Of a stretch of DNA of 64,000 bases, positions 4,146-50,523 are shown piece by piece; position 1 is the first letter of the stretch; each line of letters opens with the position of its first letter. The stretch is from a bacterium (GTDB lineage: Bacteria; Sysuimicrobiota; Sysuimicrobiia; Sysuimicrobiales; Kaftiobacteriaceae), in NCBI GenBank assembly GCA_044868695.1, contig JBIOWP010000107.1, positions 4,966-68,965 on the forward strand, written 5' to 3'. A program made the translations under genes and the position numbers. The notes beneath the pieces were generated by a model that saw only the letters and a program-made list of their open reading frames with translations, made no database searches and was not told where the DNA came from.

Positions 4146-5015
4146 GTGGGAGTTCAGGAAGCCGCCGTCGGGCTGGCCGAGGGCCGCCACGCCGGGCTGG
4201 TCCGCGAGGTTGAGCGGTCCGAAGCGGCGCGCCGCCGCGCGGAGCGCCGGGCCACGACCCTCGGCCGCCTCGCGTTTGCCGCCGCCTTCCTGCTGGCGTG
4301 GGAAGCTGCGTCGGGCCGGATTGTCGACCAGTTCTTCGTCAGCCGGCCCAGCGCCATCGCCGCTTCGCTGTGGGCGATGGTGGTCCGCGAGCAGCTCTTC
4401 TACCACCTGCAGTTCACGATCACCGAGGCGCTGGTCGGCTATCTCATCGGTGCGGGCGCAGGCCTGATCCTCGGGTTCTCGCTGGGGCGGGCGGACCTCG
4501 TGTACCGGATCGTCGAGCCGTTCCTCGTGGCATTCTACGGCATCCCGCGGATCGCCCTGGCGCCGCTGTTCATCCTGTGGTTTGGGATTGGGATCACCTC
4601 GAAGATCGCGGTGGCCGCGGTGATGGTCTTCTTCATCGTGTTCATCAACACGATCGCCGGCATCCGGGCCGCGCCGCCCCAGTTGCTGCAGGTGGCGCGG
4701 GTCATGGGGGCCACCGAATGGGATCTGACGCGCAAGGTCGTGTTTCCCGCGGCCACCCCCTTTATCGTGGCGGCGCTGCAGATCACCGTGCCTCAGGCGA
4801 TGATCGGCGCGATCGTCGGCGAGTTCATCTCCAGCAACCGCGGCGTCGGCCATCTGATCAGCCGCGCGGCGGGGTGGCTGGATACGCCCGGGTTGTTCGC
4901 CGGGATCGTGGCGCTGCTGGTCGTGGTGCTGGTGATGAACCTGGGGATCACAGCGCTGGGACGGTACTTGATGCGGTGGAATCCGCGGCAGACGAATCTG
5001 CGTGACGTGCCGTAG
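4146..5015 (+). CDS. ABC transporter permease, NitT/TauT family
   Basis: Multiple TM segments, IPRIALAPLF and EAA-like LQVARVMGA loop, GAIVGEF; GTG start at 4146. Confidence 0.9.
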   Translation: MGVQEAAVGLAEGRHAGLVREVERSEAARRRAERRATTLGRLAFAAAFLLAWEAASGRIVDQFFVSRPSAIAASLWAMVVREQLFYHLQFTITEALVGYLIGAGAGLILGFSLGRADLVYRIVEPFLVAFYGIPRIALAPLFILWFGIGITSKIAVAAVMVFFIVFINTIAGIRAAPPQLLQVARVMGATEWDLTRKVVFPAATPFIVAALQITVPQAMIGAIVGEFISSNRGVGHLISRAAGWLDTPGLFAGIVALLVVVLVMNLGITALGRYLMRWNPRQTNLRDVP

Positions 5016-9604: not shown

Positions 9605-9787
9605 CAGACCGACCTCGGTGAAACGATTTTGACCCCAGGGAGGAGGTGCGGGCGAAGGAGGAGTGGTGTCCGTCTGTTGCTTCGTGGGGAGCCTGTCGTG
9701 GAGGCGTCCAAGATCAGACTCGTAGGCTCCTCCCCCCTGCGGGTCTTTGATGGTATTCAGCGCCGGGAGCAGGATTCCTGCCTCAGA

Positions 9788-9803
9788 TATCAACATGTTG
9801 TGG
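9788..9803. promoter_or_regulatory. Putative NrdR box upstream of thyX
   Basis: tatCAACATGTTGtgg: perfect 10-bp palindromic core matching the NrdR consensus acaCwAyATrTwGtgt. Confidence 0.65.
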
Positions 9804-9807
9804 ATAA
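9799..9807 (-). promoter_or_regulatory. Perfect DnaA box (TTATCCACA) overlapping the NrdR box
   Basis: + strand TGTGGATAA is the reverse complement of the canonical DnaA box. Confidence 0.6.
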
Positions 9808-9859
9808 GTTGGGGGTGGAGCCCCAGGGCCTGCGCCGAGCGGCCGTTCGCATCATCAAT

Positions 9860-9894
9860 GGGGTCAGACCCCTTTGACGAACGGGGTCAGACCC
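9860..9894. repeat. Doublet of REP-like palindromes GGGGTCAGACCC(C)
   Basis: Two copies at 9860-9872 and 9883-9894 in the thyX/Nudix divergent intergenic region. Confidence 0.75.
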
Positions 9895-9946
9895 GTCCTC
9901 GGCTGGCGGCCGGAGGATGGCCCGGCGGGGTGTCAAACTCAGCGTC

Positions 9947-38942: not shown

Positions 38943-40655
38943 TTGTGCGTGCTGCCGTGGGAGCGTCTGCGCGACAAGCTCCTCGCCCTGGAGGGCAAAC
39001 CATTTCAGGCGTACCAGGGACTCGAGGGCGCCTACCGCTTCGACCGTTTCACACTGCACCTGGAACGCATCACCGTTGAGCCCCCGGGTGTCCCGTCGCC
39101 GCTGCGCGTGCGCGTCGATCAGGCTGAAGCGCGGTTCCCGCCCTCGATGTGGGCGACGCCGGCGGGGAAGATCGCCTTGGAAGATTTCGCGGCCCGGCGG
39201 TGGCTGGATGCCATCCGCAAAGTTGCCCGCGCCCGCGGCGGCCGGCCGGGGTTCACCATCGATGTCGGCGGCCAGCAGATTCTGGAGCGCACGGCGTGCC
39301 GGATCGGCGAGGAGTACGTGGAGATCCGCGGCGCGCTGTTCCTTCCCTCTGAGGGCCGCAAGGTCGCGGCGAAAGCCGCGCAGACGGTCTTCTTCGAAGA
39401 CCTCCCCCAGCTGGTCGATGCCGCGCTGATCTTCCCGAACCTCAACCCCGCGGCTGCGCAGCGCCAGCAGGAAGTGGCCGAAGATGCCGACGCCCTGCGC
39501 GTCGCCCTGACCTCCCGGTCTCTGGTGACCTTCCTCGCCGATGGGGCCGTGCTGCCGCGCGAGGGCGGTTCTGACCGGCCGGTGCTGTCCCGGTTGGTGC
39601 CGCTGCAGGCGCCGCCCGAGCTGAAGGTGACGGTGGACCTCCCTCACCGCGGGGCCGTGGCCGGCATGGGGATTCCCCGCGGGGTCACGGTCATCATCGG
39701 GAACACGTTTTCCGGGCGCAGCACCCTGCTGCGCGCGATCGCGTCCTCCGTCTACATGCACGTCCCCGGCGATGGGCGCGAATTCTGCGCGACGGTCCCG
39801 GATGCGGTCCTGGTACGGGTCGAGGAAGGCCGGCGTGTGGAAGCGGTAAATCTCGCCCCGTTCCTCCACGAACTGCCCGGCGGGGAAGATCCCGCCCGCT
39901 GCAGGCAGGAGCATGCCGGCGACGTCGTGTCGCAGGCCGCCGGCATCATTGAGGCGCTGGAGGCGGGGTGCTCGCTCCTGCTGATTGACGAAGACACGTC
40001 GGCCCCAGGGCTGCTCGCCCGCGATCCGCTATGGCGGCAGCTTGCTCCGGAGGCGCGCCAGCCTGTGACCTCCCTCGCCGAGGCGGTGCGGCCGTTGTAC
40101 GAGGAGCACGGCGTGTCGACCATCCTGGTGTCCAGCCGCGGCGCGGAGTATGTGCCCGTCGCCGACACGGTCATCGCCCTGGAGTCCTTCCGGCCCCGCG
40201 TCGCCACCGCTGAGGCCCGCCACGCGGTGGCACCGCACGCGGGCGTGCGCGCGGATGGGAAAGGCCGGTTCGGCGGAGTGCACCACCGCGTCCCGCTGCC
40301 GGAGAGCCTAGCGTCGTTGAGGGGCCGCAAGATGCGCAGTGAGCCGCACGGCGGTCACACCCCGCGCGGCATGATCCTTGGACGTGACGGCGTGGACCTG
40401 TCGGCCGCTGAACAGCTGATTGATCCCGCGCAGGCTCGGGCGATTGCCGCGGCGCTGGTCTTTGCCGCCGACCGCGGGCTCGCGGACGGGATGCGCACCC
40501 TCCGGGAGATCCTCGGGTCAATCGAGTTGGACATCGCCCAGCACGGCCTCGAGGTCCTGGTGCCCGACGCCGTGCCCGGCGACCTGGCCCTGCCTCGCCG
40601 GCAGGAACTCGCGGCGGCGTTCAACCGGCTGCGCACCTTGCACGTGAAAACCTAA
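38943..40655 (+). CDS. Uncharacterised ABC-class ATPase domain protein (COG3044-like), degenerate Walker A
   Basis: [55 protein letters not shown]...EQL; Walker A reads GNTFSGRST. Confidence 0.85.
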
Positions 40656-40740
40656 GTCCCGTCGTGTACCGCAGGCAGGAATTGCGTTGCTCGGCGCGAA
40701 TCGCGCGAGAACCCAGCGAAGCTCGTGGAGGCGACAGACC

Positions 40741-42099
40741 ATGGAGAGCGTGAAGTACCTGCTTGACGAATCGCAGATTCCCAAATCCTGGTACAACATC
40801 TGCTCGGATCTGCCCGTGCCGCTTCCGCCGGTGCTGCATCCGGGCACCAAGCAGCCGGTGGGCCCGGACGATCTCGCGCCGCTGTTCCCGATGGACCTGA
40901 TCCTGCAGGAGGTCAGCACTGAGCGCGAGATCCCCATCCCCGAGCCGGTGCGCGAGGTGTACAAGTTGTGGCGGCCCACGCCGCTGCATCGCGCACGGCG
41001 GCTCGAACGGGCGCTCGACACCCCGGCGCACATCTACTACAAGTACGAAGGCACCAGCCCGGCCGGTAGTCATAAGCCGAACACCGCGGTCGCGCAGGCG
41101 TTCTACAACAAACAGGCGGGCGTGCGGCGGCTGAGCACGGAGACCGGAGCCGGACAGTGGGGCAGCGCGCTGGCGCTGGCCTGCCGGATGTTCGGGCTCG
41201 AGTGCACCGTGTACATGGTCAAGGTGAGCTACGACCAGAAGCCGTACCGCAAGACCATGATGCAGACCTGGGGCGCTGAAGTCATCCCCAGCCCGAGTTC
41301 CCGTACCAACGCCGGCCGCGCCATCGCGGCCAAAGACCCGCGCTCGCCGGGCAGCCTGGGCATCGCCATCAGCGAGGCCGTCGAGGACGCCGCGACGCAC
41401 GATGACACGAAGTACTCTCTGGGCAGTGTCCTCAACCACGTCCTCCTACACCAGACCGTCATCGGGGTGGAAGCCCGCAAGCAGATGGAGATGGCCGGCG
41501 AGTATCCCGATGTTGTCATCGGGTGCATCGGGGGCGGGAGCAACATGTCGGGGCTCACGTTCCCGTTCCTGGCCGACAAGTTCAAGGGCAAGAAAGTGCG
41601 GATCGTGGCGGTGGAGCCCGAGGCGTGCCCGTCGCTGACCCGCGGCCGGTACCTCTATGACTTTGGGGACACTGCGGCAACCACGCCACTCATCAAGATG
41701 TACACGCTCGGCCACAGTTTTGTGCCGCCGGCGATCCACGCGGGTGGGCTGCGCTACCACGGCGATGCGCCCCTCGCCTGCCTGCTGTATCATCACAAGT
41801 ACATCGAGGCCGCCGCCTACTCGCAGCGGTCCGTCTTTGAAGCCGCGGTGCAGTTCGCGCAGACCGAGGGGATCATTCCGGCGCCGGAATCCGCGCACGC
41901 GATCCGCAAGGCCGTCGATGAGGCGCTCCAGTGCAAGCGCGACGGCACGGCCCGGGTGATCCTGTTCAATCTCAGCGGACACGGGCACTTTGACCTGAAG
42001 GCCTACGAGGATTTCCTGGCCGGCAGGCTGGAGGACTTCGTCTACCCGCAGCAGCAGGTGGAGCAGGCGATGAAGGAACTGGCGGCGATTCAGCCCTAG
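40741..42099 (+). CDS. trpB2: TrpB2-type tryptophan synthase beta-like PLP enzyme (stand-alone)
   Basis: [29 protein letters not shown] (PLP Lys), [21 protein letters not shown]; no trpA adjacent. Confidence 0.93.
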
Positions 42100-42110
42100 C
42101 CGAATTCTTA

Positions 42111-42124
42111 TTGACGGAGGTCAA
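42111..42124. promoter_or_regulatory. Palindromic operator-like site TTGAC-N4-GTCAA overlapping a -35 element upstream of the FTR1 gene
   Basis: TTGACGGAGGTCAA, perfect 5-bp inverted arms in an AT-richer intergenic patch. Confidence 0.5.
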
Positions 42125-42180
42125 GAATTACGGTAGCCTAGGGCGCGGGTTTCACTCCGCAACACCTTGGGGAGGGGCGC

Positions 42181-43011
42181 ATGGCGGCATCGTTGTTGAT
42201 CACCCTGCGAGAGGGGCTCGAAGCCGCTCTCATCGTGGGGATCATTCTCGCGTATCTGGCAAAGACCGGGAACCGGGACAAGTCAAGGATGGTCTGGCTC
42301 GGCACCGGCCTCGCCGTCGTCATGAGCATCGTCGCCGGGGCCGGCATCTTCTTCAGTGCCGGTGGGCTCGCGGGCCGGGCGGAGGCGATGTTCGAGGGTA
42401 CGGCGATGCTGACCGCCGCCGGGGTCCTGACCTACATGATCTTCTGGATGCGCCGGCAGGCGATCAACATCCGCGCCCACCTGCAGTCGCAGGTCAACAT
42501 GGCGCTGGAGACTGGATCGCTCGGGGCGCTGGCGTTCCTGGCGTTCGTGGCGGTGGGGCGCGAAGGCATCGAGACGGCGCTGTTCATGTTCGCGGCCGTC
42601 CGGACCGCAACCCCGATGGCGGCCACAGTCGGTGGGCTGTTGGGTTTGTTGGCGGCGTTTGTGTTGGGATATCTCCTCTATCGAGGCACATACCGCCTCA
42701 ACCTGCGCGCGTTCTTCAACGTCACCAGCATCCTGCTGCTGCTGTTCGCGGCGGGTCTGCTGGCCCACGGCACCCATGAGTTCCACGAGGCGGCTGTCAT
42801 TCCGCCGATCATCGAGCACGTGTGGGACACGAACTCGGTACTCCACGAAGCCTCACCGCTCGGGAGCCTGCTGAAGGCCGTCTTCGGCTACAACGGCAAC
42901 CCCTCGCTGGTGGAGGTTCTGGTCTACGCGGCCTACCTGGTCCTCGTCGGCTGGGCATACTTCCGGCCGCCCACCCCAAAGGAGCTGGCTCCGGAACGCG
43001 CGAAAGCCTGA
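42181..43011 (+). CDS. FTR1/EfeU family iron permease
   Basis: Two RExxE motifs (LREGLEA, REGIET), 7 predicted TM segments, FGYNGNPS. Confidence 0.92.
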   Translation: MAASLLITLREGLEAALIVGIILAYLAKTGNRDKSRMVWLGTGLAVVMSIVAGAGIFFSAGGLAGRAEAMFEGTAMLTAAGVLTYMIFWMRRQAINIRAHLQSQVNMALETGSLGALAFLAFVAVGREGIETALFMFAAVRTATPMAATVGGLLGLLAAFVLGYLLYRGTYRLNLRAFFNVTSILLLLFAAGLLAHGTHEFHEAAVIPPIIEHVWDTNSVLHEASPLGSLLKAVFGYNGNPSLVEVLVYAAYLVLVGWAYFRPPTPKELAPERAKA

Positions 43012-43017
43012 CACGGC

Positions 43018-43308
43018 ATGCGTACAGCTCACGGACTGGACTTGAGGTCGCTCGCGCTCAGCCTCGTCGCCTCCTGGTGATGACTGGTCGCCCCCGTGGT
43101 GAGCCTCCTCGGGTTAGGAGGCGCGACGCTGCAGGTTTTCTTTGAGTCGGCCAGGCCGTATCTGCTGGTCCTGACCGGATTCTCGCTGGCCTATTCGTTC
43201 TACCTCGTGTATCGCCGGCCGTTTCGCCCCCGACCCGCCGTCGCGCGACTGTGGATCACGACTGTAGTATCCGTCATCCTCGTGTCCATTCCGTTCTTCC
43301 GGGACTGA
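43018..43308 (+). CDS. MerT-like small membrane protein with two in-frame TGA codons at the CC metal-binding motif: candidate tandem-selenocysteine (UU) protein, 96 aa
   Basis: MRTAHGLDLRSLALSLVASW-TGA-TGA-LVAPVVSLLGLGGATLQVFFESARPYLLVLTGFSLAYSFYLVYRR...; aligns by eye with the MerT pattern ASxCC..P....LG..G.......PY; starts 6 nt after the FTR1 stop; SECIS-like hairpin follows. Confidence 0.72.
43087..43127 (+). other. Candidate bacterial SECIS element
   Basis: Upper stem GCCTCCT (43103-09)/AGGAGGC (43116-22), loop CGGGTT; lower stem GTCGC (43087-91)/GCGAC (43123-27); apical loop 26 nt after the second TGA. Confidence 0.6.
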
Positions 43309-43385
43309 CCCGCGGTCCACCCCTTCACAGTTTTCGCGGTTTCCACCAATGGCGTAAGACGAGCCTGACATAGGAGAGTACTGCC

Positions 43386-43442
43386 AAAGAAGGAGGGGAC
43401 TGTCCCCTCCTTGCAATAGCCCATATTGGTCATTGATGGGTG
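43386..43442. repeat. Dispersed ~57-bp element with GGAGGGGAC-T-GTCCCCTCC palindrome (copy 2)
   Basis: Shares a 26-nt identical core plus downstream similarity with 29734-29790. Confidence 0.8.
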
Positions 43443-43459
43443 ATTTGTTTGGGTCATCT

Positions 43460-44286
43460 GTGACGACTGAAGAGATCATGTCGCTCGCGCTGGAGATGTC
43501 CGGGTTTCTCCGGATTCCGGAGGATTCCGCCATTTTCGTCCCAGGCAAGGGCATCCAGAAGGTGCTCTTCGGTGTGGACGTCGGGGCGGCGGAGCTGCAG
43601 ATGGCGAAAGCGCTGGGTGTCGACCTGGTGATCGCCCACCACCCGCCCGCCACGGGCACCGACACCTGGAAGATCTTCCTGCGGCACGTCGAGTTTATGA
43701 CCGCTGCCGGGGTGCCCGAGGACGCGGCGCTGGCGGCCGTGGCGGAGAAAATCGAAGGGCTGAAGCTTCGCGGGCAGGTCGCCAACTACGACCACGTGCC
43801 CTCGGCCGCGAAATTGATTGGCATCCCGTTCATGAACATCCACGCGCCGCTCGATGAACTGGGCCGGCGGCGCCTGCGCGAGCAGGTGGACGGCGTGCTG
43901 GCCCGGGGCCGGGCCACGGCCGGAGATCTGGTGGACGCGCTCGCCGCGCTTCCCGAGATGCGCGCCGCGCCGACCACCGTCCAGGCGGTCCTCGGCGACG
44001 CGGCCGACCCCGTGCGCCGCGTCGTCGTGGGCCACGGCGCCTATACGAACGGCGGCTATCCGGTCGCCCGGGCGTGCTTCGCGCACGGGGTAGACGCCGT
44101 CGTGTACATACACATCGACTTCGCGGAACTCCAGCACCTCCGGGCCGAGCGCCGCGGTAACCTCATCGTTGCGGCCATCTGGCCGGCGATTCGCTGGGTT
44201 TTACCCCCTTTCTTCGCGAGCTCCGGAAGCGCGGACTGGACGTGATGACCTTCAGCGGCGTGATTGAACCAGTCCCCAGTCCCTAG
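43460..44286 (+). pseudogene. NIF3-like dinuclear-metal protein homologue with an apparent single-base frameshift near 44172
   Basis: GVDVG, DLVIAHHP, MNIHAPLDELG, VYIH. Adding one G at GCGGCCATC restores a natural-looking tail NLIVAGHLAGDSLGFTPFLRELRKRGLDVMTFSGVIEP ending TAG at 44286. Could be a sequencing error. Confidence 0.65.
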
Positions 44287-44298
44287 TCCCAAGTCCCT
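44271..44298. repeat. Heptamer tandem array AGTCCCN x4 (unpaired, GGGACT variant on minus strand)
   Basis: AGTCCCC-AGTCCCT-AGTCCCA-AGTCCCT. Confidence 0.8.
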
Positions 44299-44353
44299 GC
44301 CTGATGGTCCCGTCACTAGGCACTAGTTGCCCGTCACTGCTAGAATCGTTGTA

Positions 44354-45064
44354 ATGCCTCCCACAGGCTGGCTTCTCGACCTCCGCGACGGCCCCACGCC
44401 GTATCCGGACGCCTGGGCGCTGCAGAAGGCGCTGGTGACCGCGCGCCAGCTCGGACAAATCACCGACGGCCTTGTGCTCCTGGAGCACGAACCCGTGTTT
44501 ACCGCTGGCCGCTCCGCGCGGGCCGAACACCTCCTGTTCCCCAGGGAGGCGCTGGCCGCGCGGGGTTTCGGGGTGTACGACATCGAACGCGGCGGCAGCG
44601 TCACCTACCACGGGCCGGGCCAGCTGGTCGGGTATCCCATCCTCGATCTGCGCGCCTACAGCGATGACGTCGTACAGTACGTGCGGTCATTGGAAGACAC
44701 GGTCATCCGGACCCTCGCGGGCTTCGGCATTGCCGCGCAGCGTGTCCGAGGGTACCCGGGAGTCTGGGTGGGCGATGAGAAGATCGGCGCGGTGGGCGTG
44801 GCCGTCAAGCGCAAGGTGACGATGCACGGGTTTGCGCTGAATGTAGATCCGGACCTGCAGCACTTTGCCTACATCAATCCCTGCGGCCTCGGGCGGCCGG
44901 TGACGTCGCTGGCGCGTGTCCTCGGGCGCCCGGTCACGGTGGACGAGGTGCGGGAGGTCTACACGTGCCGGTTCACCGACGTCTTCGGTCTGTCCCTCGC
45001 CCCCATTTCCCGCGGCGAGCTCGAGCGGTCCCTGGCAATCTCCGCTGTTCCCGTGCGCGCGTGA
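44354..45064 (+). CDS. lipB: Lipoyl(octanoyl) transferase
   Basis: LLEHEPVFTAGR, ERGGSVTYHGPGQLVGYPI, GVW, KIGAVG, MHGFALN, INPCG; TAGAAT 7 nt before the ATG. Confidence 0.95.
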   Translation: MPPTGWLLDLRDGPTPYPDAWALQKALVTARQLGQITDGLVLLEHEPVFTAGRSARAEHLLFPREALAARGFGVYDIERGGSVTYHGPGQLVGYPILDLRAYSDDVVQYVRSLEDTVIRTLAGFGIAAQRVRGYPGVWVGDEKIGAVGVAVKRKVTMHGFALNVDPDLQHFAYINPCGLGRPVTSLARVLGRPVTVDEVREVYTCRFTDVFGLSLAPISRGELERSLAISAVPVRA

Positions 45065-45066
45065 CC

Positions 45067-46212
45067 ATGAGCCGCCGGCGGTTCGAGACCCGCGCGATCC
45101 ATGAGGGGCAGCCGCCGGATCCCGCGACCGGCGCGGTCATGACGCCGATCTATCAGACCGCGACATACGCGCAGTCCGAGCCCGCGGTCCACAAGGGATA
45201 CGACTACAGCCGCACCGCGAATCCGACCCGCACCGCGCTGGAAACATGCCTGGCGTCGCTGGAAGAGGGGGCGCACGGGCTCGCGTTTGCCTCGGGGATG
45301 GCGGCGATCACCACAGCGTCATATCTGCTCAACCCCGGCGACCGGGTGCTGGCCCCGGACGACGTGTACGGCGGAACCTACCGGTTGTTCGTCCGCGTCC
45401 TCCAGCGCTACGGCATCGCGCCGTCGTTCGTGGACATGACCGACCTGACGCGGGTCGAGGCGGCGCTGGGCACCCACCCGCGCCTGGTGCTGGTCGAGAC
45501 GCCGACCAACCCGTACCTCAAGATCCTCGACATTGCGCGCATCGCCGAGCTCGCGCATACCCACGACGCGCTCGTGCTCGTGGACAATACGTTTGCGTCT
45601 CCCTATTTCCAGCGGCCGCTGACCCTGAGTGCGGATATCGTCGTCCACTCGACAACCAAGTACCTGGGCGGGCACAGCGACGTGATCGGCGGCGCCGCGG
45701 TGACCAACAGCAGGGAGATCGCTGAAACGCTGCGGTTCCACCAGAATGCCGCCGGCGCGGTGCCGGGACCGTTCGACTCCTGGCTCGTCCTGCGCGGGAT
45801 CAAGACGCTGGCGGTGCGGATGGAACGCCACGCCGCCAACGCGATGCAGGTGGCGCAGTTCCTAAACGGCCATCCCGCCGTGGCCCGGACGTTCTACCCC
45901 GGTCTCCCCGGCCACCCCGGCTACGACCTCGCCCGGCGGCAGATGACGGGATTCGGCGGGATGGTGTCGTTCGTTCTGAAGGGGGGAGGCCGCGCGGCCA
46001 GGGCCGTGGCTTCCTCGACGCGGGTCTTCCTCCTGGCGGAGAGCCTGGGCGGCGTGGAATCGCTTCTCGACCATCCGGCCAGCATGACGCACGCCTCGCT
46101 CGCCGGCTCCCCGATGCAGGTTGACGAAGGGCTGATCCGCCTCTCGGTGGGGATTGAGCACATCGACGACCTCATTGACGATTTGAAGCAGGCGCTCGAC
46201 AACGCGAGATGA
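45067..46212 (+). CDS. Cystathionine gamma-lyase/synthase family PLP enzyme
   Basis: TRAIHEG, PIYQTATY, YSRTANPT, FASGMAA, ETPTNP, HSTTKYLGGHSD, AESLGGVES, IRLSVGIE. Confidence 0.93.
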   Translation: MSRRRFETRAIHEGQPPDPATGAVMTPIYQTATYAQSEPAVHKGYDYSRTANPTRTALETCLASLEEGAHGLAFASGMAAITTASYLLNPGDRVLAPDDVYGGTYRLFVRVLQRYGIAPSFVDMTDLTRVEAALGTHPRLVLVETPTNPYLKILDIARIAELAHTHDALVLVDNTFASPYFQRPLTLSADIVVHSTTKYLGGHSDVIGGAAVTNSREIAETLRFHQNAAGAVPGPFDSWLVLRGIKTLAVRMERHAANAMQVAQFLNGHPAVARTFYPGLPGHPGYDLARRQMTGFGGMVSFVLKGGGRAARAVASSTRVFLLAESLGGVESLLDHPASMTHASLAGSPMQVDEGLIRLSVGIEHIDDLIDDLKQALDNAR

Positions 46213-46484
46213 CGACCGTCTACGTCCCAACTCCGCTCCGCCGCACGACGGGCGGCCAGGGCAAGGTCCAGCTTGCCGGCCGCACCGTGCGGGAGTTGCT
46301 TGACGCGCTGGAGCGCCGCCATCCCGGCATCCGGCAGCAGGTGTTCGATGAGCGCGGCGAGGTACGCAGCTTCATCAATGTCTTCGTCAACGGCACCGAG
46401 ATCCGGCAACTGCAGGGGCTGGCGACGCCCGTGAAAGAGACGGACGAGGTGTCGATCATCCCCGCGATGGCGGGCGGGTTGTGA
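46209..46484 (+). CDS. Ubiquitin-like sulfur carrier (MoaD/ThiS/CysO family) ending GG-L
   Basis: VYVPTPLRR.TGG, INVFVNG..IR.LQGL.T, IIPAMAGG followed by one extra Leu before TGA. Confidence 0.9.
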   Translation: MTTVYVPTPLRRTTGGQGKVQLAGRTVRELLDALERRHPGIRQQVFDERGEVRSFINVFVNGTEIRQLQGLATPVKETDEVSIIPAMAGGL

Positions 46485-47917
46485 AGCGCACGGCGGGCAA
46501 GGTCAGGCCACGGCCCCGCCGCGCGGCGCCAACCGCCGCCAGGGACGAAATCTTCGACAGTGTCCTCGATGTGGTCGGCAAGACCTCGCTCGTGCGCCTG
46601 CACAAGGTCACCCGCGGCCTGCGCGCCGATGTCGTGGCGAAGCTCGAGTACCTCAATCCCGGCGGTTCGGTCAAAGACCGGATCGGCCCGACGATCCTCG
46701 ATGATGCGGAGCAGCGCGGGCTACTGCGGCCCGGCGGAACGATCGTGGAAGCCACCTCCGGGAATACCGGCGTCGGCCTGGCCATCGCCGCGGCGGTCCG
46801 CGGGTACCGGACCATCTTCGTCATGCCGGACAAGATGTCGGAGGAGAAGATCCGGCTGCTGCGCGCGTTCGGCGCCCGCGTCGTCATTACGCCGACCGCG
46901 GTGGCGCCCGACGATCCACGAAGCTACTACAGCGTGAGCCGGCGCATCGCCGAGGAGACCCCGAACAGCTTCTACGCCAACCAGTACGCCAATCCGGCGA
47001 ACCCGCAGGCGCACTATCGCACGACCGGTCCGGAGATCTGGCGCCAGACCGGCGGCCGGCTCGACCTCTTCATTGCCACGATGGGGACCGGCGGGACAAT
47101 TTCCGGCGCCGGCAAGTTTCTCAAGGAGCGGCGCTCGGCGCTGCGCGTCATCGGGGTCGATCCGCTGGGGTCGGTCTTTTACGAATACTTCAAGACCGGA
47201 AAGCTCCCCGAGCCGCGGACATATAAGGTGGAGGGGATCGGTGAAGACTTTCTCCCCGAGACGATGGATTTCTCCGTCGTGGACGAGGTCGTGCAGATCT
47301 CCGACCGCGAGGCGTTCATGATGACGCGGCGGCTGGTGCGCGAAGAAGGACTGTTCTGCGGCGGCAGCAGCGGCGCGGCGGTGGCGGGCGCGATCAAGTA
47401 TCTGCGCACTCTGCCCGACGGCGGCGCGGGCCTGCGGGCGGTCGTGGTGCTCCCCGATTCCGGATCGCGCTACCTCTCCAAGATCTTCTCCGACGACTGG
47501 ATGCGGGAGCATGGATTCTTGGAGATCGAACTAGGCACCGTCGGGGAGCTGGTGCAGACCAAGTCCATCCCGCTGGTGTCGGCCAGCCGCACCGATGCGG
47601 TCAGCGACGTCGTCGCCAAGATGAAGCAGTACGACGTGTCGCAGCTGCCGGTGCTGGAAGACGAGCGCCTGGTCGGTATGATCAGCGAAGTGGACCTGCT
47701 CACGCACCTGCTGGATGGCTCTCACCGCCCCTCGGATCCAATCCAGCCCATCATTGATCCCGCGCCCCCGGTGGTGGCCCCCGACAGCCCGATCGACGTC
47801 CTGGCCGACGTCTTCCTCTCCGCCAACGCGGCGGTCGTTGTGGATCACGGCGCGGTGGTGGGGATCGTCACCAAGATCGACGTCATCGACCACCTGGCCA
47901 AACGCCTGGGCCGCTGA
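46481..47917 (+). CDS. cbs: Cystathionine beta-synthase (PLP domain plus C-terminal CBS pair)
   Basis: KLEYLNPGGSVKDR, EATSGNTG, KVEGIGED, PDSGSRYLSKIFSDDW, tandem CBS domains. Confidence 0.9.
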   Translation: MKRTAGKVRPRPRRAAPTAARDEIFDSVLDVVGKTSLVRLHKVTRGLRADVVAKLEYLNPGGSVKDRIGPTILDDAEQRGLLRPGGTIVEATSGNTGVGLAIAAAVRGYRTIFVMPDKMSEEKIRLLRAFGARVVITPTAVAPDDPRSYYSVSRRIAEETPNSFYANQYANPANPQAHYRTTGPEIWRQTGGRLDLFIATMGTGGTISGAGKFLKERRSALRVIGVDPLGSVFYEYFKTGKLPEPRTYKVEGIGEDFLPETMDFSVVDEVVQISDREAFMMTRRLVREEGLFCGGSSGAAVAGAIKYLRTLPDGGAGLRAVVVLPDSGSRYLSKIFSDDWMREHGFLEIELGTVGELVQTKSIPLVSASRTDAVSDVVAKMKQYDVSQLPVLEDERLVGMISEVDLLTHLLDGSHRPSDPIQPIIDPAPPVVAPDSPIDVLADVFLSANAAVVVDHGAVVGIVTKIDVIDHLAKRLGR

Positions 47918-47922
47918 CCGGG

Positions 47923-48777
47923 ATGAGAGACAACACGCGCGCCGGCGGGGCGCTGCGGCTTTCAACCGGGCAGTCGTTGCCCGATTTGCGGATCGTCCCC
48001 CGCGCCGAGGTCCATTTGCACGAGGAGACCGATCCGGCCCGCGTGCAGCGGCTGGTCGCGCGCATGCGAGCGGACGGCATCCTGCGCAATCCGCCGATTG
48101 CCGCGCCGCTGCCGGAAGGCGGGTACGTCGTTCTCGACGGAGCCAACCGCAGCACTGCCCTGATGGCGTTTGAGGCGCCGCTGCTGCTCGTCCAGGTTGT
48201 CGACTATCATGATCCCGCGGTCAGGCTCGATGTCTGGCATCACCTGCTGACCGAGCCGGTGGACCTCGGGGCCCTGCTGCGGTCCAAGGGACTGATCTTG
48301 AAGGACATGAGTGTGTCTGAAGCGGCGCAGGCACTGGCCCAGCGCGCGATCGCATGCTACCTGCTGGGTCCTGCCGGAGCCCGGTCAGTGGCCGCCGCAC
48401 CGGCCCAGCCGTCCGCGGCGGTTCTCTCGGCGGTTGTGGACGCCTACAAGGCGACAACCCGCATTTACCGCGTGATGGACACAGACTTGGATACGCTCGC
48501 CCGCGCGTATGGGTCCGTCTCGGCGGTGGTGGTCTTCCCGACCTTCACCAAACGCGACATTCTTGAGATTGCGCGGTCGCCAGTCAAGCTGCCCGCCGGC
48601 ATTACGCGGCATCTCATCCCCGGGCGCGCGCTGCGCGTGAATCTGCCGCTCGAGGTCCTGACCTCGCCGGGCGACGCCGAGCAAAAGAACCGCTGGCTGG
48701 TCGAGGAGATTCACCAGCGGCTGCTCGAGAACCGCGTCCGGTACTACCCGGAAGACTCCTTCCTGTTTGATGAGTGA
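47923..48777 (+). CDS. ParB/Srx-fold protein resembling free L-serine kinases SbnI/SerK
   Basis: LHEE (catalytic Glu position), DGILRNP, VLDGANR, WHH, LPAGITRHLIPGRAL.VNLPL..L and C-terminal VRYY.E, a pattern I recall from S. aureus SbnI. Confidence 0.72.
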   Translation: MRDNTRAGGALRLSTGQSLPDLRIVPRAEVHLHEETDPARVQRLVARMRADGILRNPPIAAPLPEGGYVVLDGANRSTALMAFEAPLLLVQVVDYHDPAVRLDVWHHLLTEPVDLGALLRSKGLILKDMSVSEAAQALAQRAIACYLLGPAGARSVAAAPAQPSAAVLSAVVDAYKATTRIYRVMDTDLDTLARAYGSVSAVVVFPTFTKRDILEIARSPVKLPAGITRHLIPGRALRVNLPLEVLTSPGDAEQKNRWLVEEIHQRLLENRVRYYPEDSFLFDE

Positions 48778-49666
48778 GCTGCTCAACGCCATCGGCAATA
48801 CGCCGCTGCTGCGCCTAACCCGCGTCACGCGGGATCTGCCGCTGGCGGTTGAAGTGCACGTCAAAGCCGAGTGGTTCAACCCCGGGGGATCGGTGAAGGA
48901 CCGTCCGGTGCGCCGGATCATCCTCGACGCGGAGCGCGACGGCCGCCTGTCGCGCGACCGGACCATCCTCGATTCGTCATCCGGAAACGCCGGCATCGCC
49001 TACGCCATGATCGGAGCGGCCCGGGGCTATCGCGTGCGTCTGGTCGTGCCAGGCAACGTCAGCGAGGAACGCAAGCACATCCTGCGCGCGTACGGCGCGG
49101 AGGTGGAATACTCCGATCCGCTAGAAGGGTCGGACGGCGCGATCGTCGTCGCCCGCCGCCTGCACGAGGAGGGCCGCGGCCAGTTCTTCTACGGCGACCA
49201 GTACAGCAATCCCAGCAATCCCCGCGCGCACTACGAGACGACCGGTCCTGAGGTGTTCGCGCAAACCGAGTCGCGCATCACCCATTTTGTGGCCGCGCTG
49301 GGCACCAGCGGGACGATCGTCGGGGCCGGGCGCCGGCTGCGGGAACTGCAGCCGGGCGTGCAGATTGTGGCGGTCGAGCCGGACACGGCCCTGCACGGCA
49401 TCGAGGGATTGAAGCACATGGCCAGCGCGATCGTTCCGGGAATCTATGACCGCTCCGTCCACCACCGCACGATTCCGATGAGCACGGAGGCCGCCTACGA
49501 GATGGCCAGGCGCCTGGCGCGCGAGGAGGGGCTCCTGGTCGGCCAGTCATCCGGCGCCGCGGTGGCGGGCGCTCTGCAGGTGGCCCGTGAGCTTGAGGAG
49601 GGTGTAATCGTCGCGGTCTGCCCTGACGGCGGCGACCGCTACTTGTCGACCGCCCTCTGGAGATAA
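48770..49666 (+). CDS. cysM: PLP-dependent cysteine synthase family enzyme (CysM / O-phosphoserine sulfhydrylase-like)
   Basis: IGNTPL, KAEWFNPGGSVKDR, DSSSGNAG, GTSGT, EGLKHM, CPDGGDRYLS; directly upstream of mec. Confidence 0.82.
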   Translation: MSELLNAIGNTPLLRLTRVTRDLPLAVEVHVKAEWFNPGGSVKDRPVRRIILDAERDGRLSRDRTILDSSSGNAGIAYAMIGAARGYRVRLVVPGNVSEERKHILRAYGAEVEYSDPLEGSDGAIVVARRLHEEGRGQFFYGDQYSNPSNPRAHYETTGPEVFAQTESRITHFVAALGTSGTIVGAGRRLRELQPGVQIVAVEPDTALHGIEGLKHMASAIVPGIYDRSVHHRTIPMSTEAAYEMARRLAREEGLLVGQSSGAAVAGALQVARELEEGVIVAVCPDGGDRYLSTALWR

Positions 49667-49702
49667 AATCGAGCGTTTTCTGTCGTATAATGGGGGACAA
49701 CG

Positions 49703-50101
49703 GTGCTGGAACTGAGTCGGGACCAGGCTGCGGCGCTTGTTGCGCACGCCAACGAGGAGTTTCCCAACGAGTGCTGCGGTCTGCTGGCCGGGCGCAACGG
49801 CCGGGTGGAGCGGGTCTACCGGGGCACTAACGTCGATTACAGCCCCTATACGTACCTGATGGATCCCAAAGAGCAACTGGCCGCGTTCAAGGACATGGAA
49901 GCGGCCGGGCTGGACCTGGTAGGGATCTATCACTCGCACACCCACACGGCTGCGTACCCGTCCAAGACCGACGTGGCGAAGGCGTTCTACCCAGATGTAC
50001 TCTACATGATCGTATCGCTGGCGAGGCGGGAGACTCCAGAGATCCGGGCATTCCGGTTCTTGGACGCAGAGATCGTCGAAGAGGACGTGATCATTCGATG
50101 A
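49703..50101 (+). CDS. mec: Mec/JAB (MPN+) metallopeptidase
   Basis: PNECCGLL, IYHSHTH...YPS.TD JAMM motif (E...HxH.....S..D). Confidence 0.9.
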   Translation: MLELSRDQAAALVAHANEEFPNECCGLLAGRNGRVERVYRGTNVDYSPYTYLMDPKEQLAAFKDMEAAGLDLVGIYHSHTHTAAYPSKTDVAKAFYPDVLYMIVSLARRETPEIRAFRFLDAEIVEEDVIIR

Positions 50102-50523
50102 AAGTGTCCACCCGCGCGGAGTACGGACTGCGGGCGTTGATCGACCTCGCCAGCCACTACGGCGAAGGTCCGGTGCAGACGCATCAGATTGCGGCCCGCC
50201 AGGGGCTGCCGGAACCCTACCTCAATCAGCTGATGAGTTCCCTCCGGCGCGCAGGCCTGGTGGCCAGCAAGCGCGGACCCGCGGGCGGGCACGTGCTGGC
50301 GCGCGCCCCCGAGGCCATCACCCTCCGCGAGGCCTTCGACGTCCTGGAGGGGTCGACGGCGCCGTGGTGGTGCGTCGAGTCCGATGATCCCGACTGCGTG
50401 TATGCCCACGGCTGCGGGCTGCGGCCGGTGTGGCAGGCGATCAACCAGGCGGTGGAGCGCGTCCTGGGCGAGATGTCGCTCGCGGATATCTCACGCGTGA
50501 GGCAGCCTGCCGGACGCACCTGA
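50098..50523 (+). CDS. Rrf2 family transcriptional regulator (CymR/IscR-like)
   Basis: STRAEYGLRAL, YLNQLM..LRRAGLV.S.RG..GG..LA; Cys cluster WWCVESDDPDCVYAHGC. Confidence 0.92.
   Translation: MKVSTRAEYGLRALIDLASHYGEGPVQTHQIAARQGLPEPYLNQLMSSLRRAGLVASKRGPAGGHVLARAPEAITLREAFDVLEGSTAPWWCVESDDPDCVYAHGCGLRPVWQAINQAVERVLGEMSLADISRVRQPAGRT

Follow-up and report, generated by a model that had tools for sequence, protein, structure and literature searches.

Whether a single RNA hairpin can serve two adjacent in-frame UGA codons is the question raised by a small gene on contig JBIOWP010000107.1 of the bacterial genome assembly GCA_044868695.1 (Sysuimicrobiota; Kaftiobacteriaceae). The stretch analyzed here, referred to as the window, comprises 64,000 nucleotides (nt; positions 4,966 to 68,965 of the contig, forward strand), and its coordinates are counted from its first letter. 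The gene encodes a MerT-like membrane protein whose reading frame contains the tandem TGA TGA, followed at a short distance by a hairpin (43099-43127) which, as judged by sequence comparison, is probably a bacterial selenocysteine insertion sequence (SECIS) serving both UGA codons. With somewhat less assurance, we also favor the view that this single SECIS supports two consecutive SelB-dependent decodings, which would create a vicinal selenocysteine (Sec) pair, as diselenol or diselenide, at a metal site in a MerT-like first transmembrane helix. The features on which the argument is built are the following.

43018-43308, forward strand: MerT-like membrane-protein gene of 96 codons, given by its translation as MRTAHGLDLRSLALSLVASW-U-U-LVAPVVSLLGLGG...FFRD, with TGA as its own stop
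43078-43083, forward strand: tandem in-frame TGA TGA, read here as a putative Sec21-Sec22 and invariant in 27 loci (20 distinct sequences)
43084-43098, forward strand: linker of 15 nt between the second TGA and the base of the hairpin, invariant in length (gap-free alignment A3)
43103-43109, forward strand: 5' arm GCCUCCU of the upper stem, invariant and inside the longest invariant run of the gene (13 nt)
43110-43115, forward strand: apical loop CGGGUU, in which positions 2-4 are G and only position 5 varies (U/C; family sequence CGGGYU)
43116-43122, forward strand: 3' arm AGGAGGC of the upper stem, which opens with the third base of the rare Leu codon (TTA/CTA)

A MerT-like gene with tandem in-frame TGA codons

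Read from the ATG at 43018, the frame runs through 20 codons, the two TGA codons (TGA1, 43078-80; TGA2, 43081-83) and a further 74 codons up to the stop at 43306-08. Decoding each TGA as a residue gives a small MerT-like membrane protein of 96 amino acids (aa), which matches the NCBIfam models merT_RC607 (E = 1.1e-9), MerTP (5e-7) and MerT_CopZ_Se, the MerT/CopZ fusion-like selenoprotein NF045683 (1.9e-4). The curated cut-offs are missed by a wide margin in each case, with 10.2 bits for Pfam MerT (cut-off 32.9), 38.6 for merT_RC607 (130) and 21 for MerT_CopZ_Se (375). Given an E value of 1e-9 to merT_RC607, relatives with a Cys-Cys pair (CC type) at E values of 1e-8 to 1e-6, and scores that nevertheless lie under the cut-offs, the MerT homology of the Sec-Sec (UU) gene is judged to be real, and the gene to form a separate subfamily. 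Sequence and profile searches of the PDB returned chance transmembrane matches only, and a tblastn search of plasmids gave no match.

A protein search identified 23 close relatives, each of which is called as a 69-74-aa protein beginning just past the TGA position. Their DNA was fetched, which yielded 20 distinct sequences at 27 loci; the assemblies are independent and comprise metagenome-assembled genomes (MAGs) of the candidate phylum ANGP1, an Armatimonadota-labeled MAG, other MAGs and soil metagenomes. The TGA-TGA pair is present in all 27 loci and all 20 distinct sequences, preceded by a conserved N-terminus (MRTAHGLDLRSLALSLLASG-UU-LIAP). Both positions are always UGA, and no CU or UC variant occurs among the distinct sequences.

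Both sides of the tandem TGAs appear to be translated as one protein. In the 14 codons before the TGAs, the proportions of synonymous (pS) and nonsynonymous (pN) differences, calculated according to Nei and Gojobori, are 0.52 and 0.13; this matches the regime of the gene body (0.53 and 0.18), and the N-terminus is thus translated in the same frame. An independent C-terminal open reading frame (ORF) was ruled out, since 7 of the 19 full-length sequences lack any in-frame ATG, GTG or TTG for at least 28 codons after the TGAs. Global reassignment of TGA was likewise ruled out, as TGA terminates 14 of 21 neighboring genes, including the MerT-like gene itself and the adjacent efeU.

A wider search, through 1.84 billion representative proteins, returned full-length MerT-like proteins as next in relatedness to the UU family; in these, an invariant S-x-C-C aligns residue for residue with the S-x-U-U of the UU family. 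The UU pair (residues 21-22) thereby coincides with a Cys-Cys pair that does not vary among 14 MerT-like Cys homologues. Reading through both TGAs also corrects a systematic misannotation: the public gene calls for the UU family (P0003-P0025) hold only the tail of 69-74 aa that follows the TGAs. These calls start at unconserved GTG, CTG or TTG pseudo-starts, and several UU loci are apparently without any public gene call.

A 5'-truncated copy was observed at 1400-1710 of locus L025, where the homology begins at the hairpin and the N-terminus is gone together with both TGAs. A divergent gene on the opposite strand lies upstream, and the 5' arm CTCCTCCT still allows 6 bp of the stem; the copy may be a remnant or the product of a chimeric contig.

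Geometry and conservation of the downstream hairpin

A preliminary description of this locus had proposed a perfect 7-bp stem with a small G-containing loop directly 3' of the tandem TGAs. Rereading of the sequence returned the same elements, with the arms at 43103-09 and 43116-22, the loop at 43110-15, and the loop start 26 nt past TGA2 and 29 nt past TGA1. The Leu codon TTA (43114-16), in frame with the ATG at 43018, covers loop positions 5 and 6 plus the adjoining base of the 3' arm. The calculated free energy is -11.2 kcal/mol for the stem only, -12.6 kcal/mol for the centroid and -13.0 kcal/mol for the 29-nt element.

In the consensus model for the bacterial SECIS (bSECIS) by Zhang and Gladyshev, which a 2026 review restates (PMC13188914), a loop of 3-9 nt sits on an upper stem of 4-16 bp (Fig. 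2 legend), loop position 1 or 2 (or both) is a G, as a rule with G or U after it, the UGA-to-loop distance is 16-37 nt, and the free energy is ≤-7.5 kcal/mol. The hairpin agrees with all of these constraints, having a 6-nt loop of the sequence CGGGUU, 7 Watson-Crick bp, spacings of 26 and 29 nt, and a free energy of -11 to -13 kcal/mol. The proposal that a SECIS-type hairpin lies in range of both UGAs is consistent with these distances. Furthermore, the UGAs are aligned with Cys, and the hairpin is kept in the UGA orthologues and absent from the Cys orthologues, the last as seen in three CC sequences.

Among the UU homologues, the hairpin segment GAGCCTCCTCGGGYTRGGAGGCGC is the most conserved DNA of the gene, and the two hairpin halves (13 and 8 nt) are its longest invariant nucleotide runs, ahead of TGATGA. 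The TGA-TGA pair plus hairpin is kept in 20 of 20 distinct sequences, with fixed spacing and no indel in the 18 aligned ones; loss of the hairpin from TGA-containing homologues, which the preliminary description had named as evidence against a SECIS, is not observed. Codons +8 to +14 (AGC CTC CTC GGG YTR GGA GGC) are four- to sixfold degenerate, and synonymous variation is found only at the Leu codon, which is TTA in 8 sequences, CTA in 11 and CTG in 1. The variable first base of this codon lies in the loop, while its third base (A) closes the stem. The lone CTG variant (L022) replaces this A with G, the only change in the 3' arm, and gives a U-G pair, so that pairing is kept.

In numerical terms, synonymous variation is absent from 6 of 7 columns in the hairpin, compared with 3 of the 43 conserved codons outside it (permutation p about 4e-5), the mean synonymous diversity at conserved residues outside the hairpin is 0.44, and pS (Nei-Gojobori) is 0.097 in the hairpin codons versus about 0.53 on either side. 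The rarity of TTA noted earlier is borne out by local codon use: in 21 neighboring genes with 657 Leu codons, TTA accounts for 0.2% and CTA for 2.3% of Leu, and GGA for 11% of Gly. Codon preference cannot account for the hairpin codons, since the family uses just these locally rare TTA/CTA and GGA codons. The comparison thus shows selection on the nucleotide sequence of the hairpin. The RNA-level constraint suspected from the rare Leu codon finds support in the suppressed synonymous change, in the U-A to U-G change that keeps pairing, and in one covarying pair described below.

Synonymous change is also rare within the linker, where codons +2 and +3 (CTG ATC) are nearly free of it (16/17 and 19/19), with a pS of 0.23 for codons +2 to +7, and the base after TGA2 is always C or G in the UU homologues. 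The conserved codons +2/+3 and this base may influence UGA decoding through their sequence context, independently of the hairpin.

In none of the three CC-type homologues whose DNA was examined (L024, L032 and L033) is there a comparable hairpin, the best reaching -1.6 versus -11.2 kcal/mol, and all three encode LLGLGGA-like peptides with other codons. The equal presence of the hairpin in CC-type homologues, which would have spoken against a SECIS, is thus not seen in these three. Likewise, no comparable hairpin follows the terminal TGA of the gene itself or the TGA of efeU.

The lower part of the structure

Below the upper stem, two arrangements were compared, which involve the following segments.

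43087-43091, forward strand: GTCGC, previously proposed as the 5' arm of a lower stem, complementary to 43123-27 in the window sequence only
43099-43101, forward strand: G-U-G, proposed 5' side of a lower helix, pairing with 43127, 43126 and 43124, with A43102 mismatched to G43123
43123-43127, forward strand: proposed 3' side of the lower helix, in which the mismatched G is followed by a C that pairs with 43101, the bulged G43125, and an A and a C that pair with 43100 and 43099

The 5-bp lower stem GTCGC/GCGAC of the preliminary description (43087-91/43123-27; helix 10-14/46-50 of the alignment) exists in the window and was set aside because it is unconserved in the homologues. Only 72% of its cells are paired, no compensatory change is found, and among 15 distinct sequences C12-G48 fails to pair in 7, while G10-C50 forms in the window alone. 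Another candidate, a helix of columns 19-21/50-52, was rejected as well, with 6 broken cells and no compensatory change.

By comparison, the A3 pairs 22-50, 23-49 and 24-47 (43099-43127, 43100-43126 and 43101-43124) are paired in 100% of cases, and all four bases are found among the homologues at the bulge position 43125. The pair 43100-43126 (A3 23-49) covaries, being U-A in 8 and C-G in 7 distinct sequences without exception. The extension contributes just 1-2 kcal/mol. A 3-bp lower helix with mismatch and bulge is tentatively proposed from this alignment; the upper stem-loop is the secure part of the structure.

Weighing the SECIS assignment

Several observations weigh against the assignment of the hairpin as a SECIS. 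As a single sequence, it is within chance for GC-rich DNA and is weak evidence alone: in a scan of all 1576 TGA trinucleotides of the window (66-70% GC), a hairpin obeying the bSECIS rules follows 14.7% of them and one at ≤-11.2 kcal/mol follows 4.8%, and perfect 7-bp hairpins number 103 per strand, or about one per 620 nt. The folding check proposed earlier confirms the 7-bp stem, the only part kept in the centroid structure of the 58-nt segment, and gives no stability beyond dinucleotide shuffles (z = +0.66). It is only when set beside its homologues that the hairpin exceeds chance. Rfam yielded no family matching the hairpin, either for 40000-46000 with E values up to 10 or for the whole window at the gathering score.

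In the covariation check, one lower-helix pair covaries, and the upper stem, never varying, shows no covariation. On a maximum-likelihood tree calculated with these columns excluded, both sites of the pair 43100-43126 switch three times, always jointly, of which just one switch falls on a well-supported branch, so that no significance can be claimed; both sites are moreover nonsynonymous (Val/Ala and Thr/Ala). RNAalifold favors a small upstream hairpin (columns 11-14/22-25) that uses the same bases as the lower helix. This structure is possible and was set aside, being incompatible with the covarying pair and expected to be unwound once the ribosome is on the UGAs. The comparison with Cys homologues is a small sample of three DNA sequences. 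In addition, ARAGORN did not find a tRNA-Sec in the window or in 29 loci, and a scan with the bSECIS rules, covering the window plus related loci of about 250 kb, revealed no other credible gene with an in-frame TGA, the matches at other in-frame TGAs being wrong-frame or end-of-gene only.

Alternatives to a shared SECIS were weighed as well. The hairpin could be a by-product of the peptide SLLGLGG and local codon preference that plays no part in the RNA, with the UGAs read through or the gene inactivated otherwise. In favor of this, SLLGLGGA is invariant in the UU family and similar in Cys homologues; hairpins this good follow about 5% of the TGAs in the window, and the absence of covariation in the upper stem fits as well. 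However, codon preference predicts the opposite of the choice that the family makes with TTA/CTA and GGA, synonymous diversity is zero in six of the seven hairpin codons, and no hairpin is formed in those Cys homologues that share the peptide motif, their codons being different. Inactivation is at odds with pN/pS ratios of 0.25-0.34 on either side of the stops in 20 lineages, which are unexpected for an inactivated gene. A by-product of this kind is therefore regarded as highly improbable. An intrinsic (Rho-independent) terminator was rejected separately: the region was unflagged by a terminator scan and has no T run, the stem being followed by GCGACGCTGCAGG before any T.

The palindrome might instead act in another capacity, as a DNA operator or as an RNA hairpin for mRNA stability, pausing or translation (for example, with the anti-Shine-Dalgarno-like CCUCC masking the internal Shine-Dalgarno-like AGGAGG), while the UGAs are recoded independently. 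A 7-bp inverted repeat with a 6-bp spacer has the typical shape of an operator, the 3' arm is a perfect AGGAGG, and SelB binding is a prediction. Against this, the distance to the UGAs is fixed while the flanking genes vary (FTR1, ZIP-like or secG upstream, and different genes downstream), and two features fit RNA, not duplex DNA: the change of U-A to U-G, and the lower helix with its bulge and covariation. An internal start after AGGAGG was rejected, as no start codon is conserved there and the codon 7 nt downstream is CTG, CTC, CTT or GCC. Independent recoding would also require that tandem stops be passed, which does not happen efficiently without a dedicated signal, and no other conserved structure lies in range; such a separate role is thus very unlikely. 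It is unlikely, too, that the hairpin is a SECIS for one UGA only, the other being decoded differently (by near-cognate read-through or another element) or termination being usual. The UGA-SECIS distance is tightly constrained in E. coli fdhF, and an offset of 3 nt might disfavor one of the two codons. Yet both TGAs are invariant, with neither CU nor UC among the 20 distinct sequences, and both UGAs fall within the range of the model. TGA1 has no further hairpin with a G-containing loop within range, and near-cognate stop read-through is too inefficient for keeping a conserved protein. A SECIS shared by both UGAs remains the reading that we prefer.

Proposed decoding of both UGA codons

If the hairpin is a shared SECIS, a complex of SelB, GTP and Sec-tRNA(Sec) would dock on the apical loop and upper stem and deliver Sec when a UGA is in the A site, as is standard in bacteria; this is the mechanism considered most likely. 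The ribosome would meet the UGA at 43078-80 and then that at 43081-83, with the helix base at 43099 lying 18 and 15 nt beyond, respectively. From this geometry we infer that the hairpin is probably outside the mRNA channel, and still folded, at both UGAs. Because it probably stays folded in this position, the same hairpin could recruit SelB twice, the second complex binding after one translocation step. The predicted product would carry Sec21-Sec22 where MerT-type transporters have the metal-binding Cys-Cys pair of the first transmembrane helix. SelB binding, the two consecutive Sec insertions and the ribosome geometry are all deduced from sequence.

If this is true, one translocation step must suffice for SelB to be reloaded on the same RNA. 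The shared hairpin would make testable both how far the SelB-SECIS-ribosome arrangement tolerates a shift of 3 nt and how fast SelB is reloaded on the same RNA.

Comparison with known selenoprotein systems

The element resembles the bacterial SECIS of the E. coli fdhF/fdnG type in being a stem-loop within the coding region, 3' of an in-frame UGA that is aligned with Cys. The small loop with G and then G/U early, the GC-rich 7-bp upper stem and the spacing of 26 and 29 nt are shared features as well. In contrast to known bacterial SECIS elements, one hairpin is found here for two adjacent UGAs; the proposed bulge is on the 3' side, its base is unconserved, and SelB binding is putative. In the minimal element of fdhF the upper stem starts 11 nt after the UGA, whereas here it begins 19-22 nt past the UGAs. 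The bacterial model assigns one SECIS at a fixed short distance to each UGA, and the locus would represent a natural, conserved case of two UGAs sharing a hairpin.

Several UGAs of one mRNA are decoded in eukaryotic selenoprotein P by means of SECIS elements in the 3' untranslated region (3' UTR). The likeness lies in one RNA element leading to more than one Sec per mRNA. Unlike the hairpin described here, which has a fixed short distance inside the ORF, the eukaryotic SECIS is distant (3' UTR) and operates with SBP2 and eEFSec.

Selenoproteins of the MerT family have been described before. The 2026 review (PMC13188914) lists in Table 1 a "putative mercuric transport protein" (PF02411) with the motif C/SxxU and one Sec, a preprint by Haft (10.1101/2022.07.06.499078) reports a small group of selenoproteins of the MerT family that carry the motif CU, and NCBIfam holds the model NF045683 for a MerT/CopZ fusion-like selenoprotein. 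The UU gene is similar to these proteins (PF02411, NF045683, NF033560) in its putative selenium at the metal site of a MerT-like first transmembrane helix and in an annotation truncated at the UGA. It differs in having UU instead of CU or C/SxxU with one Sec, in its length of 96 aa without the CopZ/HMA fusion, and in the absence of a mer-operon context, the neighbors being FTR1/EfeU, a ZIP-like permease or secG.

Closely spaced double selenoproteins are known as well, including a UxxU metal-binding protein (NF041115) and a UxxU FmdB-family protein, and the double selenoproteins of the same Table 1 have UxxU, UxxxxU or two separate sites (PMC13188914). The UxxU proteins share with the UU gene two UGAs few codons apart and a soft-metal-binding site, but here zero codons lie between the two. 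The UU motif is lacking in the 2026 table of 119 prokaryotic selenoprotein families and subfamilies (PMC13188914), and adjacent selenocysteines or consecutive or tandem UGAs were not found in the literature by a full-text search restricted to several-term matches. Both the type of element and the protein superfamily have thus been described before, while a tandem Sec-Sec site from one hairpin is missing from the catalog, and the locus suggests a Sec-Sec metal-binding site, not yet catalogued, in a family of membrane transporters.

Genomic context

The MerT-like gene is directly preceded by an iron permease gene.

42181-43011, forward strand: efeU/FTR1 iron permease gene (NCBIfam EfeU 274 bits, cut-off 255; Pfam FTR1 E = 8e-58)

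The TGA stop of efeU lies 6 nt before the ATG of the MerT-like gene, and the two genes are probably co-transcribed. Across the family, the upstream neighbor depends on the lineage, being FTR1/EfeU in ANGP1-type loci, a ZIP-like permease in L021 and L007, and secG in L002, L004 and L028. Further neighbors include an ABC-ATPase-like gene, PALP, FTR1, a NIF3-like gene, LplA and sulfur-carrier genes. Among the neighbor genes inspected, no merR, merP or merA was found near the UU genes. The CC homologues L024 and L033 adjoin mercuric-reductase-like or MerR/HMA genes (mer-like clusters). If the proposed decoding is correct, a Sec-Sec protein would be encoded beside Fe/Zn-type permeases (FTR1, ZIP-like) in a soil lineage, not in a mercury operon.

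In ANGP1-type loci, FTR1/EfeU stands alone, with EfeO and EfeB not nearby. The ZIP-like permease (L021, 2941-3808; L007, 1694-2528) has HNxxEG motifs and reaches 23 bits with Pfam Zip, which is under the cut-off, and secG of L028 is located at 9699-9923. Two of the three upstream contexts are thus divalent-metal permeases, and none of the three is a mer operon.

Downstream in the window, an inverted repeat at 43380-43406 (AAGGAGGGGA-CTGT-CCCCTCCTT) lies between the MerT-like gene and the NIF3-like gene, which starts at about 43433-43460; this repeat could be a terminator-like hairpin or one that masks the ribosome-binding site. Farther downstream, at about 44350-50500 (L029, 11259-17428), are genes for an LplA-like protein, a Cys/Met pyridoxal phosphate enzyme, a ThiS-like protein, PALP-CBS, PALP, a JAB protease and an Rrf2 regulator. 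This sulfur-carrier type cluster resembles a CysO/ThiS-dependent cysteine or thiocarboxylate pathway, and a link to selenium or sulfur handling is conceivable. In the lineage with the secG context, a tRNA-Leu(GAG) lies within about 500 nt downstream (L002, 6345-6430; L004, 6614-6699; L028, 10693-10778). In L028 it is followed by a serine recombinase and other mobile-element-like genes, and the site may be an integration hotspot.

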